Shown: positions 21,791 to 28,277 of the stretch, piece after piece
Numbering within the stretch: position 1 is the first letter of the stretch
Layout of the letters: every line of letters begins with the position of its first letter
Virus record (IMG/VR): IMGVR_UViG_2648501437_000010
Span: 1-30,031 of that record
Source of the DNA: a virus
Lineage: Duplodnaviria; Heunggongvirae; Uroviricota; Caudoviricetes
Strand: one strand, 5' to 3'
Length of the DNA stretch: 30,031 nucleotides
Notes under the pieces: generated by a model
What the model was told of the DNA's origin: nothing
What the model saw: the letters and a program-made list of their open reading frames with translations, nothing else
Database searches by the model: none
Translations under genes and position numbers: made by a program

Positions 21791-22126
21791 TTAAGCCTCA
21801 AATACTTGTCTGAATGTAGCAGTTAAGACACAGTACCCCTGATATCGCTTGACCGTATGACTGTCACATACAACTACAATCCGTTTTCCTCTTGGATTAA
21901 CCCAATAGAACGACTCAACGCCTGCTCGCTCAGTCAGGAAGTCATCGATTGCATTAATTTCGTTGTATGATCTGGTAAAGGTTAACGACCATTCTTCTTT
22001 AATACGATTAAGACCTTGAGCCTGTCGCTGCTCGTAGTCATCACCAAAATTAAGTACCGTTACATTCGGTTTTACGCTTTTTTCAGATTCGTAATCTGGA
22101 TACCAATTAAACGTTTGTCTTTCCAT
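21791..22126 (-). CDS. M: minor tail protein (lambda M family)
   Basis: 111 aa; ...NFGDDYEQRQAQGLN...SFYW...P... matches the gpM pattern (RFGDGYSQR...GLN...SFLW); AAGGA RBS lies in the loop of a small hairpin. Confidence 0.8.
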   Translation of the reverse strand: MERQTFNWYPDYESEKSVKPNVTVLNFGDDYEQRQAQGLNRIKEEWSLTFTRSYNEINAIDDFLTERAGVESFYWVNPRGKRIVVVCDSHTVKRYQGYCVLTATFRQVFEA

Positions 22127-25100: not shown

Positions 25101-26746
25101 ATGGCTGTCGCCATCGTGGCAAAGGTGCTAACCATCTGGCTGCCTGCGCCAACTACCCCCATGATCCCTGCTCGCATCAGTTTGAACGCAACCATCGCGG
25201 CCACGACCTTACCGAGATTAATTACCAGCTCTTGGTTCTTTGCTAACCATTGAGCAAGCTGACGCAACCCATCGATTGCCGTTGTTAACCCCGAACCTAA
25301 AGAATTGGCAAACGAAATCCCTTCGGCGCTATTCATGATTGAAGCCAGTTCTTTCATCCCCTTCGATAGAGAATCCAGATATCCGGCCTGACCAACCCGA
25401 TCAGCAAATAACGTGAATGACGTCTGAAGTTGCGCCAGCGCACCTGTGTAGGTTTGCATCATGTCTTTCGCTGCGTTCTCATTCTCCGCACGCAGACCAA
25501 CAAACATCAGAGACAACGCCTGTTTTGCCTCAACCGTACCGCTGGCAACGGCTTTAGTCAGTTCCCCCATAGTGATGCCTGCGGCGTCTGCCATTGCCTG
25601 CATCGCGTTAGGAACGGCTTCACCTAATTGCTGACGTAGCTCTTCCATTGACACAACGCCCTTACCGGACATCTGCTGAACGGCCACAGCCGCACGTTTC
25701 AACAGCTCACTATCACCACCAAAACGAGCAACGGAGTCCACCAGCGCCTTCAGAGAACCATCGGTTGGATCTAAGCCAGCAGAACGAAACTTCACGAAGG
25801 AGTCTGTTAACGCCTGCATCGCGAACGGCGCATTTTGAGCCATGTCTACGATGTACTTCATATCATCAGCGGCAGCCTGGCCCGGGTTGGACTTCTCCTT
25901 ATTCAACCCTCGAAGCATCACCCGCATACGTTCCATTTCGGCCGCAGCTTCAACAATAGGCTTCTGCCACCCAAACATGATGTCAGTAACCGTTCTGGCT
26001 GCATCTCCGATCTCGCCAAGCAGGAAAATGTTGCCACGAAGGCCAGAGAACATACCTCCTTCGTTACTTTTACCGCTATGGCCAGAAGCGCCGCTACGCC
26101 GCCCGCTACCACCATCGCCACTTCCAGATGTACGAACGCGTACCGGCTTGCTAATCAGTTGCTGACGTCCGATAACTTCGTCCATCTGCTCACGAACCTT
26201 TTTCAGTCCCTCGGCAGCCTGACTCGTTGTGACACCCCAATTACTGAGTCGCTTCGTCGTGGTATTAAGGCGCGTATTCATGCCACTCACGGACGCAGAG
26301 GCTTCTTTGACCTCCGTACCAAAGCGGCTTGCGCTTTTGCTTGCATAGGTCGCCCAATCAGAGAAATCATTTAGCTCTGATTGCACTTTACGTAATGACG
26401 CGGTGAGTTTATCTACTGAAGAAGTTGTCGTATCGACGCGCTCAATCAGGGCTTTAAGACCAGAATTGAGGCTGGTGATGTTGCCACGCATTTTACGCGT
26501 AGCATCTGAAGCAAGCTCAAAACCGGCAGCTACATCCTGTAGTTTATCTGCCGTAGAATCGAGCTTGCTTTCCAGAACGCCAATGATACGGGCGACCGAA
26601 CCCAAAGAGCGTTCAAAGGTTTGGATTTTTTGAGCAGGCTTTGTTACCTGCTCACCAAATCGAGTAAGCAGTTTCCCCGCACGATCGATTGACGCTGTAA
26701 ACTGTTTGTCTTCCAGCGACAGGATAAACTCTACGTTTTGTGACAT
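22169..26746 (-). CDS. tail tape measure protein
   Basis: About 1525 aa, alpha-helical/coiled-coil-rich with internal hydrophobic Gly/Ala-rich segments; sits between the G/GT chaperone genes and the M homologue; first ATG at 26746 (the track ORF starts at a TTG at 26767). Confidence 0.85.
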   Translation of the reverse strand: MSQNVEFILSLEDKQFTASIDRAGKLLTRFGEQVTKPAQKIQTFERSLGSVARIIGVLESKLDSTADKLQDVAAGFELASDATRKMRGNITSLNSGLKALIERVDTTTSSVDKLTASLRKVQSELNDFSDWATYASKSASRFGTEVKEASASVSGMNTRLNTTTKRLSNWGVTTSQAAEGLKKVREQMDEVIGRQQLISKPVRVRTSGSGDGGSGRRSGASGHSGKSNEGGMFSGLRGNIFLLGEIGDAARTVTDIMFGWQKPIVEAAAEMERMRVMLRGLNKEKSNPGQAAADDMKYIVDMAQNAPFAMQALTDSFVKFRSAGLDPTDGSLKALVDSVARFGGDSELLKRAAVAVQQMSGKGVVSMEELRQQLGEAVPNAMQAMADAAGITMGELTKAVASGTVEAKQALSLMFVGLRAENENAAKDMMQTYTGALAQLQTSFTLFADRVGQAGYLDSLSKGMKELASIMNSAEGISFANSLGSGLTTAIDGLRQLAQWLAKNQELVINLGKVVAAMVAFKLMRAGIMGVVGAGSQMVSTFATMATAIQTPFNLGATAVTRFNRAARMGLAPIPSLIFAIRGAITGLKGAFAGLTAFIAANPIGAAFTVATVAVAGLITYMTMLRSETSKVVDEIRKIPEAMTAAKRAQMAEYKARLEQQITQKEQELKSGEKVVYGPGMAGTTVKINQDERKRIENELNDLRKKRDKTTGAIERGDIAVAKRLAKDAAESQIEKIREENRDFAATFVKARQEALDKIQKINDDGSLSDDEKNKLLAPLRETVNKSYLEPAQKLVDSLSSRKNATEKQIATLNDQLEKAKKDGNTEQIQKLQGSIRGYQEHLEAVAQELTQAEFERDNAAKTGKGVMSNQGTVLGLGTTDKAAQKALAQYMRNQMDSATYQRTLPDGTPMMDFEGKPIIGPKQLKTQLNLQKASSASSLEKMSDEERAAAIAALTKAREQDAAAAEKAAQRSANASQRAAKKEQAAQQKLAAGYQKALDKADQLMGQMGESSKATVSFDQSLRDTTKSLTDLANAVPNEFITQEMIDKAKKRLEDLKNATPEYREMFNRRNVEQMISTWAPESDSIISAGYTPSREDKVADFEDTYNRNLKALIELRDKASDPKVVALYTKKINQLIAAGNTALIKETGTATQKLALEYENLAEQIESTWTDLFSGLTDVLTDFVINGKMSFSSLSQSILKDITNMVVKSQITLPLMNMLGMGTTAAGSSQSGNLLTGVASAVANQGVRISNTVNGDKSVGEATKETSSSVTGLGQTTQQTTSAIGTATNAIGSWVSGLFNSTEAKDAETKAVKDSIFSMQNLSSVTGALSAAFAMLGANASGSGNKWLNFGATVASGLVSVWAGGGFDGLMSGSSGSTSGFNNLTSSAADGTNGIPAIPKFANGGIFGKDGVIPLRAYQKGGIANSPQLALFGEGDMNEAYVPLPDGRTIPVTLSTDGMSGGGNVLSPVSIEINVHSDGSTTESGDTESIWNNAAQRMKAIALETIAQEKRPGGSLNPNTQRN

Positions 26747-26753
26747 TCCCTTG

Positions 26754-27421
26754 TCATCCTCTGCCAAATATTTGCATCAGTTGCTCTTTGGCGTCAGGGT
26801 CTGCCTTATCCTGGCTTGGATCGTAGACTTTATCTGTTACGACTGGTCTTCCAATCCTGAGTTGCAAACCCTCCATGAACGCCTTCACAGCCTCGCCATC
26901 CGCCTGGGACGCACGAGCGACTTGTAAGTTGCGGACATCCTCTTCCGCACGCAGACGGTCTATATTGCGACTGAGCATCCAGAACATCGTGAGAGGAACG
27001 TTCAGTAGCTCTAATGGCGACACGGCGTAGTGAGCAACTACACGACTGAAATAGAATCCGAGATCTATTGAGACGGTCCTTGTCCCGGATTCATCGCGGG
27101 AAATTACTTTGCCCCTTCGCCAGCCGCTTTTTCGTTTTCTTCATCAATCACTTCCATAGCGAAGGTGAAGATCTGCTGGAGTTGCGGAACAGTCAGTTTT
27201 TCAAGAACTTCATCAGGCACTGAAGGGATAACCTTACGAACCAGATCTGCATAAGCTGTCACTTGCTCAACAGGAGACATGTTCATGAGATCTTTGCCTT
27301 CCATCTGCTTGATGGAAACGAACAAACCTACCGTCATTTCAACGATGGGATATTCCTGACCGCCAAATTTGATGCTTTTCTTCGGAGGCAGAATGGAATC
27401 GAGATCGAGTAATTTGGTCAT
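26754..27421 (-). CDS. putative GT-type tail assembly chaperone produced by a -1 programmed frameshift
   Basis: The downstream ORF (26754-27023 in the track) is open in the -1 frame from 27140 to 26754 and overlaps the 3' end of the G-like ORF by 34 nt (27107-27140); classic G/GT arrangement directly upstream of the tape measure gene. Confidence 0.45.
27104..27421 (-). CDS. tail assembly chaperone (lambda G-like)
   Basis: 105 aa, acidic; located between the major tail and tape measure genes; AAGGA RBS; -1 frame extension available downstream. Confidence 0.7.
   Translation of the reverse strand: MTKLLDLDSILPPKKSIKFGGQEYPIVEMTVGLFVSIKQMEGKDLMNMSPVEQVTAYADLVRKVIPSVPDEVLEKLTVPQLQQIFTFAMEVIDEENEKAAGEGAK
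27107..27140 (-). other. candidate -1 ribosomal frameshift window (no canonical X_XXY_YYZ heptamer; best candidate is the A5 run in cGAAAAAGcg)
   Basis: mRNA agaaaacgaaaaagcggctggcgaaggggcaaag; both the 0 and -1 frames are open only across this 34-nt overlap. Confidence 0.35.
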
Positions 27422-27476: not shown

Positions 27477-28223
27477 TTAATCTGCGGAGTTAATCGTTAC
27501 TGACTTAGTTGTCTTCTTAGCGCCGCTATTGCTGGTGAAGGAGATGTTTGCAGTACCCTGCGCCACACCACGTACCAGACCCGTTTGATCTACCGTGGCC
27601 TTTTCCTGGTCTTCGGATTCCCAAACACCGGTTTTATCTGCGGCATCATCTGGAGTGATTTCTGCTGTCAGTTGCACAGTCTCCCCTGCTTTTACAGTTG
27701 GAGATTCCGGTTTGATCGACACGGTTTTTACCGGTTTAGGGCCGCTCATTCTTCCCAGAACGCCTTCGTCATCAGGGTACGCACTGAACTGAACAGAGAA
27801 CACACGAACATCATCAGACTGGTAAGTCATGGTGAAGTTACCTGCGGTCGCAGCTTTCGGGATGGTCAGAACGTAGTCGGTAGTGTCCTGCGGAGTCAGA
27901 ACCAGCTCTTTGGCTACGTCGATCAGGTTGACACCCTGTGCGGAAGTGATGGTCACAGCGTTGTCGTCTTCGTTCAGAGTAGACCCCGGCATCAGATCAA
28001 CCATATTTTTCAACACAGACTCGGCCAGCGGCGCAGTAATGGTAATGTTACGACCCTGCACCAGCTCGGACATAATTGTCTGGCCGTGCTGGTCGACAGT
28101 GACTTTCAGCGTTTCAGTGGCTACTTCAACCTGAACACCACCTTTGGTGTAACCCAAATCCACACCACCAAACGACACCTTACAGGCACCAAGTTTGATG
28201 TTTTTTACATGGGTATTAGACAT
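27477..28223 (-). CDS. major tail protein with C-terminal Ig-like (Big_2-type) domain
   Basis: 248 aa from ATG at 28223 (AAAGGAG RBS); C-terminal about 80 aa (VKTVSIKPESPTVKAGETVQLTAEITPDDAADKTGVWESEDQEKATVDQTGLVRGVAQGTANISFTS) has the Big_2 pattern; positioned directly upstream of G/GT and the tape measure gene. Confidence 0.8.
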   Translation of the reverse strand: MSNTHVKNIKLGACKVSFGGVDLGYTKGGVQVEVATETLKVTVDQHGQTIMSELVQGRNITITAPLAESVLKNMVDLMPGSTLNEDDNAVTITSAQGVNLIDVAKELVLTPQDTTDYVLTIPKAATAGNFTMTYQSDDVRVFSVQFSAYPDDEGVLGRMSGPKPVKTVSIKPESPTVKAGETVQLTAEITPDDAADKTGVWESEDQEKATVDQTGLVRGVAQGTANISFTSNSGAKKTTKSVTINSAD

Positions 28224-28277
28224 TGATGGAAAACTCCTTTTTCCGTTAATTCTACGCATTCATTGCGCTAATAGTAA

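Follow-up and report, generated by a model that had tools for sequence, protein, structure and literature searches.

The gpG/gpGT pair of phage lambda, and with it the conserved tail-chaperone frameshift of long-tailed double-stranded DNA phages, was reportedly described by Levin, Hendrix & Casjens in 1993, and the tail-chaperone frameshift of such phages is also said to have been treated by Xu, Hendrix & Duda in 2004, 2013 and 2014; a summary is given in PMC5009743. In lambda, two small open reading frames (ORFs) are located between the genes for the major tail protein and the tape measure protein; the second, in the -1 frame, overlaps the first at its end and lacks a start codon of its own, and a shift near the 3' end of G leads to a fusion that ends just before the tape measure gene. 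Here we examined a locus of the same layout in a 30,031-nucleotide (nt) stretch of Caudoviricetes DNA (positions 1 to 30,031 of the IMG/VR virus record IMGVR_UViG_2648501437_000010), the whole of which is hereafter called the window. Our sequence analysis indicates that two consecutive small ORFs on its minus strand, G and T, very probably constitute a G/GT tail assembly chaperone pair, in which a gpG of 105 amino acids (aa) and a gpGT of 222 aa would be produced via a programmed -1 frameshift at the tetranucleotide A_AAG. Both the G/GT strategy and shifting at A_AAG are already well known; what is new is the combination of the two in a widespread group of phage-plasmids, together with the corrected annotation. 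No description of a frameshift in phage SSU5, or of a tail-chaperone frameshift at A_AAG, was found in the literature searched, an earlier listing of tetramer-type G/GT sites in other phages being possible. Three differences set the locus apart from lambda: the G_GGA_AAG heptamer of lambda is represented in the clade of the window by A_AAG alone (within G_GCA_AAG or A_GUA_AAG), the site directly abuts the stop codon, and neither G nor T has detectable sequence similarity to lambda G or T.

The A_AAG motif has been characterized in other settings. Among 16 Z_ZZN tetramers tested in Escherichia coli, A_AAG was by far the most shift-prone, with 5.6% frameshifting when the IS3 pseudoknot was placed downstream and about background levels without a stimulator, and tetramers, chiefly A_AAG, are used by 87 insertion sequence (IS) elements of the IS1 and IS3 families (PMC4066793). 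NNA_AAG sites work in Bacillus subtilis cdd and in IS1222, and they become more efficient when a tRNA with broad wobble decodes the 5' codon (PMC5009743). The proposed site in the window would share with IS1222 (G_CGA_AAG), cdd (A_CGA_AAG) and the IS1/IS3 tetramers the A_AAG motif and a tRNA-Lys that re-pairs on AAA, the dependence of useful levels on a downstream structure, and a preceding codon that ends in A. It differs from them in that their products are transposases or an incidental extension and not a phage chaperone, in that the 5' codon of IS1222 and cdd is CGA, and in that none of these sites has been described on the last sense codon next to a stop. The codons GCA and GUA are decoded by cmo5U34 tRNAs, a broad-wobble class that is reported to promote shifting at NNA_AAG, and their use as 5' codon would fit the NNA_AAG rule. 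Recoding beside a stop codon is known from the +1 'shifty stop' of prfB (which encodes RF2) and from phage structural genes with a +1 or -1 shift at their end, SPP1 gp17.1* and Listeria PSA being examples. The proposed site resembles these in being at the last sense codon beside the stop, and in the window a Shine-Dalgarno (SD)-like AAGGGG (27112-27118, minus strand) ends 2 nt before AAG in a geometry similar to that of the prfB site; the proposed shift is -1 and not +1, however, and the SD-like run is not conserved in relatives.

G extends on the minus strand from the ATG at 27421 to a TAA at 27106-27104 (105 aa), and its 0 frame ends with GAT GAA GAA AAC GAA AAA GCG GCT GGC GAA GGG GCA AAG TAA. 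In the -1 frame, two successive TGA codons (27146-27141) are followed by an open stretch that begins at 27140 and reaches the TGA at 26756-26754. The original prediction had placed the G stop at 27104-27106, described the -1 frame as open from 27140 through to 26754 behind a TGA at 27141-27143, and given an overlap of 34 nt; all of these coordinates are correct, the overlap being 27140-27107 on the minus strand. Its statement that no heptamer of the form X_XXY_YYZ is present was likewise confirmed by direct reading of the 0 frame of the overlap (27140-27107); both G_GCA_AAG and A_GUA_AAG bar re-pairing in the P site. An open overlap of 34 nt alone means little; it is the sequence after the G stop that exceeds chance.

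The Z_ZZN motif with cognate -1 re-pairing in this region is A_AAG at 27110-27107 (minus strand), made up of the last sense codon of G (AAG, 27109-27107) and the A at 27110 and contained in the hexamer GCA_AAG (27112-27107). Such a site is non-canonical but has precedent, since no minimal -1 site of E. coli is better characterized than A_AAG (PMC4066793). We propose that the single tRNA-Lys of E. coli, which pairs weakly with AAG, would unpair here and re-pair one base upstream on AAA, after which decoding would resume with GTA ATT TCC and yield the product ...AAGEGAK-VISRDESGTRTVSIDLGFYFSRV.... A minority of ribosomes would in this way append the 117 codons of the T segment (26754-27107, minus strand; from GTA at 27107-27105 to GGA, with the stop TGA at 26756-26754) to the 105 residues of G, giving the gpGT fusion (105 + 117 = 222 aa). 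A shift rate of a few per cent would match the G:GT ratio of lambda, which is roughly 30:1 (PMC5009743).

That G and T are joined by a -1 shift without a canonical heptamer, as originally predicted, is backed by comparison with 97 related loci collected from phage records, plasmid contigs, IMG/VR contigs and GTDB genomes, with G protein identities to the G of the window going down to 56%. The 98 sequences compared correspond to 41 unique segments around the G stop. The motif [C/T]AAAG followed by TAA or TAG is invariant among them (98/98 sequences, all 41 unique segments), the proposed slippery sequence being an invariant tetramer and not the heptamer typical of the G/GT family, and the codon before AAG is GCA or GUA across all 98 sequences. 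Alignment with relatives had been suggested as a check on whether the overlap and the A-run are conserved: the -1 overlap is present, though its length is 34 nt in 53, 25 nt in 1 and 10 nt in 40 of 94 loci, and the A-run is not conserved. In the 40 loci with the short overlap, among them SSU5, a synonymous GGC to GGT change creates a -1-frame TGA (C TGG TGA AGG GGC AAA GTA), so that only the last 10 nt (27116-27107) are open. These shared 10 nt (A GGG GCA AAG) hold no start codon, which argues that the -1 frame is entered by recoding, and AAG to AAA is the sole cognate re-pairing available in them. Across the alignment, the entry point to the -1 frame is shown to be confined to these 10 nt.

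The same alignment bears on the two slip sites that had originally been considered plausible. The first is the A5 run in GAAAAAG (27128-27132, minus strand), on which a -1 shift (GA_A AAA_G, 27132-27128) could occur further upstream, either through a P-site tRNA-Lys that slips or through transcriptional slippage; the run would permit re-pairing from AAA to AAA, and in the window the -1 frame has already opened at this point. In 40 of 94 loci including SSU5, however, the run lies upstream of the -1-frame TGA and a shift on it would terminate at once, and in three lineages (L005/L006, L007/L008 and Photorhabdus) the sequence is GAAGCCG instead. A run of five A residues is also too short for a polymerase to slip on it efficiently. 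The alignment with relatives rules out the A5 run as the slip site, and we consider a shift upstream of A_AAG highly improbable. Of the second candidate, the GGGGCAAAG stretch, the last four bases, A_AAG, are the sole conserved part; its G run is not conserved. A 'twofour'-type shift on AAGGGG was rejected: the run reads GAAGAAG, GAAGAGG or GACGAAG in relatives, and neither GGG to AGG nor GCA to GGC permits re-pairing. We also rejected AAGGGG as an upstream SD-like stimulator, because it is not conserved (GAAGAAG, GACGAAG) and is too close for -1 stimulation. It is probably incidental, given this lack of conservation and the closure of the +1 frame past the slip site after 5 codons in the window, which equally removes the +1 frame as a route past the G stop.

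The region downstream of the G stop carries a signature of -1-frame coding. Every relative keeps the -1 frame free of stops over the 117 codons beyond the G stop, and stops past the G stop are found in the 0 frame of 18/18 and in the +1 frame of 16/18 unique sequences, compared with 0/18 for the -1 frame. Over the 84 nt after the slip site in 18 ungapped unique sequences, the variable columns are concentrated at third positions of the -1 frame (22/28), with 12/28 at first and 6/28 at second positions, and pairwise codon differences (synonymous:non-synonymous) amount to 679:583 in the -1 frame as against 209:989 and 196:990 in the other two. The -1-frame signature includes the 81 nt between the G stop and the GTG at 27023 (27024-27104, minus strand), which all annotations leave intergenic although few parts of the region are better conserved; the 27 conserved T residues encoded there are ISRDESGTRTVSIDLGFYFSRVVAHYA. 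The consensus of the -1-frame peptide from the end of G onwards is K-V-[I/V/E]-[S/T]-R-[D/E]-E-[S/A]-...-S-I-D-[L/F]-G-F-Y-F-S-R-V, and the T-frame peptides predicted before V30 (the GTG at 27023) are VISR, DESGTR and TVSIDLGFYFSR. In these alignments the -1 frame is shown to be under purifying selection from the first codon past the G stop.

This signature also bears on the alternative raised in the original prediction, in which the downstream ORF is translated independently from the GTG at 27023 (27021-27023, minus strand), the first in-frame ATG, GTG or TTG of the -1 frame, or else from the ATG at 26987 or 26978 as in the SSU5 annotation, without any fusion. All public annotations agree with such a reading, as Cyrano, SSU5, PhiR41_1, the Klebsiella phages and the RefSeq E. 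coli plasmids all carry two 'hypothetical proteins', and every record inspected presents G and T as unrelated and gives T an arbitrary start. The profile of phrog_1131, a family of unknown function, begins near GTG 27023, and it matches T solely in the part annotated by gene callers. The GTG, on the other hand, is not conserved, being GTA in Klebsiella phage ST13-OXA48phi12.3, TTG in L005, ATT in L007 and GTC in L009, and depending on the lineage the first in-frame ATG, GTG or TTG after the G stop is found at +26, +83, +104, +113 or +116 nt. No SD sequence was found in the window before GTG 27023 or before the ATGs further downstream. In short, the second ORF lies in another frame and is open across the end of G, and the relatives lack a conserved start codon with a ribosome binding site (RBS) for it. 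The products called for T in the protein database are 74, 77, 83, 86, 89, 108, 109, 116 and 131 aa long, with differing lengths coming from otherwise near-identical loci, and this multitude of start calls reflects the missing start codon. Translation that began independently at GTG would furthermore remove residues 2-28 of T, which are modelled as a beta-hairpin plus helix and are among the best-modelled parts of the protein (block means 72-89, against a predicted local distance difference test score, pLDDT, of 67 for the whole T model), so that a predicted structured N-terminus would be lost. The 81 nt before the GTG are also homologous to the T peptides of distant phages with canonical heptamers (see below). 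Because these 81 nt carry the coding signature of the -1 frame and no start codon is conserved, we regard an independent gene as very unlikely.

Termination-reinitiation or read-through of the G stop would be further ways of reaching T without a frameshift. The frames do meet at the stop, and in the window a rare start codon, ATT (27104-27102), overlaps it. In relatives, however, the codon at this position is ATT, ATA, ATC, GTT or GAA, which is not a conserved initiator, and the 0 frame past the stop, where read-through would encode FPAMNPGQGPSQ, has no coding signature and reaches a TAG after 14 codons. The distant homologues, moreover, carry classical slippery heptamers, and we find both processes hardly credible.

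Protein database searches with T and G returned mostly close relatives, and the distant homologues were obtained by tblastn searches of phage genomes. A search with G led to Pseudomonas phage hairong (26% identity), whose G ends with CCG GGA AAA GCG TAA and so contains the canonical G_GGA_AAA (L098 2863-2869), 3 nt before the G stop. The -1-frame peptide of hairong aligns with residues 14-118 of the T of the window (BLASTP E 6e-14), and this alignment starts at the SIDLGFYFSR motif, upstream of GTG 27023. In the reverse direction, tblastn with the hairong T aligned the SSU5 group from 21 nt after the G stop and also recovered Nickievirus and Rhizobium phages. Phage nickie has C_CCA_AAG (L099 698-704) 3 nt before the G stop; among the Rhizobium phages (L100-L103, heptamers at about 671-695 of the loci), RHph_X66 has G_GGA_AAG, and RHph_Y2_11, RHEph10 and RHph_N1_10 have G_GGA_AAC, in each case 15 nt before the G stop. 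All of these heptamers are canonical, in the 0 frame and inside the overlap of G with the -1 frame. The G and T of the Nickievirus (hairong, nickie) and Rhizobium phages are homologous to those of the window at about 26-28% identity; these phages also share its gene order and encode the conserved IDxGFxFSR in the -1 frame right after the G stop; their heptamers lie 3-15 nt before the stop, whereas the tetramer of the SSU5 clade is at the very last codon. Like those of the SSU5 group, the hairong, nickie and Rhizobium phage records list G and T as two hypothetical proteins and leave the fusion unannotated. Because canonical heptamers are present at the equivalent place in distant homologues, the comparison identifies the G/T family as a genuine G/GT family, and in the SSU5 clade the heptamer is reduced to G_GCA_AAG or A_GUA_AAG, the P-site half of which is unable to re-pair.

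Because the tetramer alone is barely shifty in E. coli (PMC4066793), the A_AAG model depends on a stimulator, and a predicted hairpin at 27098-27041 (minus strand) is probably the downstream element that the site would require. Its first base pair lies 8 nt downstream of AAG, or 5 nt downstream of the stop, and it is formed of two parts: a lower stem pairing CGCGAU (27098-27093) with GUCGUG (27046-27041), and an upper stem pairing GAAUCCGG (27092-27085) with UCGGAUUC (27061-27054), both on the minus strand, with a 7-nt 3' bulge and a variable apical part. RNAalifold and single-sequence folds agree on this structure, which has the lowest energy of all folds in each of 6 diverged sequences (-18 to -25 kcal/mol) and reaches z = -3.9, -2.7 and -4.4 in the three most diverged lineages, owing to different apical sequences that add pairs. 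Pairing of the upper helix is complete over 25 unique sequences (200/200 cells); 5 of its 8 pairs vary and all keep pairing, including one compensatory U-A to G-C change in Photorhabdus. Synonymous variation falls over both arms of the hairpin and rises in its loop. Three of the heptamer-bearing Rhizobium phages, RHph_Y2_11, RHEph10 and RHph_N1_10, likewise have strong two-part hairpins 8 nt after the heptamer (z -3.1, -3.6 and -2.2; L101 695-733, L102 686-724 and L103 704-742), which span the G stop codon. Their lower stem is conserved (GCGAA/UUCGC) and their upper stems differ in sequence and stay paired, while their 3' arms fall on the same (L/F)-G-F codons. The predicted folds of hairong, nickie and RHph_X66 are no better than those of shuffled sequence, and an Rfam scan of 26900-27300 gave chance-level matches and no known frameshift element.

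The A_AAG tetramer could also act as a 'shifty stop', in which a tRNA-Lys in the P site leaves AAG for AAA while the A site holds the stop codon, which is decoded slowly. We keep this P-site model alive, as a possible though unlikely reading, because AAG directly abuts TAA or TAG in 98/98 sequences and because a second A_AAG-plus-stop site occurs in two relatives, where the major tail protein ORF ends in C_CCA_AAG and a stop with an Ig-like domain in the -1 frame; the hairpin, 5 nt from the A-site codon in this case, would also be acceptably spaced. We favour slippage in the A site because the heptamer-bearing relatives have the same 8-nt spacing: the motif-hairpin spacer equals that of the Rhizobium phages, in which the last codon of the motif is the A-site codon. 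The heptamers of the distant homologues lie 3-15 nt before the stop, the tetramer rules established in E. coli fit A-site re-pairing (PMC4066793), and the adjacency of AAG and stop within one clade may be simply inherited. Both pathways give an identical product, and sequence alone cannot separate them. If the 'shifty stop' were true, the stop codon would itself belong to the signal, and the activity of release factors would influence how much GT is made relative to G; the competition of release factor and slippage would set this ratio and likewise, in some relatives, how much plain as against Ig-decorated major tail protein is made at C_CCA_AAG plus stop, and these ratios could vary with host physiology. 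The site would then be a -1 counterpart of the +1 site of prfB, for which the SSU5 clade might, as a tentative scenario, have swapped an ancestral two-tRNA heptamer.

At the protein level, G matches phrog_893 (E 4.5e-49), a family of unknown function. In the AlphaFold model of G, four helices come after a beta-hairpin, and the best match of this model in BFVD is a 'Tail assembly chaperone', with several more chaperones in the top 50. The assignment of G and T as chaperones is suggested mainly by gene position, recoding architecture and analogy to lambda, by which the G part would bind the tape measure protein and the T part would recruit the major tail protein.

Several observations weigh against a G/GT pair that shifts at A_AAG ahead of a stimulatory hairpin. 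The fold match of G is marginal (E 5.6e-4, model pLDDT 72), a PDB fold search with the G model gave no match below E = 1, and a Pfam search of G and T gave no chaperone or other family match. We infer the ribosomal shift itself and its rate entirely from sequence comparison, and the same applies to where tRNA-Lys slips (the A site, or the P site while the A site holds the stop), to the stimulatory role of the hairpin and to the chaperone function itself. As for the hairpin, its z in the window itself is -1.3, 21 of 500 shuffles matched the observed covariation, and the lower helix is broken in L008 and has lost one pair in L045. Its arms encode the conserved peptides RDES and LGFYFSR, so that protein constraint partly explains their conservation, and T has other troughs of synonymous variation. 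The SD-like AAGGGG of the window, besides not being conserved, is wrongly spaced for -1 stimulation.

The surrounding gene order is that expected of a G/GT pair. A tail terminator (PF12691; 28301-28684) precedes the major tail protein (27477-28259, minus strand; with a C-terminal Big_2 Ig-like domain), which is directly upstream of G; G and T are the two consecutive small ORFs between it and the tape measure protein (1525 aa, with TMP_3 and Tape_meas_lam_C domains), which starts at the ATG at 26744-26746 and extends to 22169 on the minus strand, and a lambda-M-like minor tail protein (PF05939) follows at 21794-22126. The order terminator, major tail protein, G, T, tape measure and lambda-M-like protein matches lambda U-V-G-T-H-M. 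The fusion had been predicted to end 8 nt before the tape measure start, which holds when counted from the end of T to the start of the ATG at 26746, while the spacer itself is 7 nt; AAGGGA precedes this ATG. The mechanical ORF list begins the tape measure ORF at TTG 26767, overlapping T, and the ATG at 26746 in the annotation of relatives has a better RBS than this TTG. Synonymous variation has a second long trough over the final ~45 codons of T (26754-26890), just before the tape measure start, and this trough could reflect translational coupling, an RNA element or recent recombination.

In the window the Big_2 domain is fused in frame to the major tail protein (...GGC CCT AAA CCG GTA AAA...). 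In two diverged relatives (L007 1285-2030 and L005 1370-2115) the major tail protein ORF ends in C_CCA_AAG and, directly after it, a stop (GCC CCA AAG TAA in L007, AGC CCA AAG TGA in L005), with Big_2 following in the -1 frame. The arrangement resembles another programmed -1 frameshift, one that would decorate a fraction of the tail-tube subunits.

Over 1 kb, the window DNA shares 98.6-98.8% identity with Escherichia phages CMS-2020a and Cyrano; it is 88% identical to Salmonella phage SSU5, and plasmids of E. coli strains M160133 and SJC33 match a 691-nt query at 100%; by these identities the window is part of an SSU5-like phage-plasmid. Of 5,426 complete E. coli genomes, 232 have this exact locus on plasmids, and SSU5-like loci are also present in Salmonella, Klebsiella, Yersinia, Cronobacter and Photorhabdus records. 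Near-identical loci in two GTDB metagenome-assembled genomes labelled 'Bacillota bacterium' and 'Candidatus Fimivivens' (L011 and L015) are probably enterobacterial phage-plasmid contigs that were wrongly binned.

PRFect does not list the three-in-a-row motif for backward shifts (PMC10885494), and predictors built on longer motifs are likely to miss sites of the A_AAG type for this reason. The locus offers a natural, evolutionarily validated case of a tail-chaperone frameshift that would work with a tetranucleotide motif alone, and since its heptamer-bearing and tetramer-bearing homologues share the 8-nt spacing to the downstream hairpin, it provides a tidy system for weighing the contributions of slippery site and stimulator to the signal. 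SSU5-like phage-plasmids are common, and in them the proposed frameshift would correct the annotation to one 105-aa chaperone and one 222-aa fusion, and would assign a function to PHROG families 893 and 1131.

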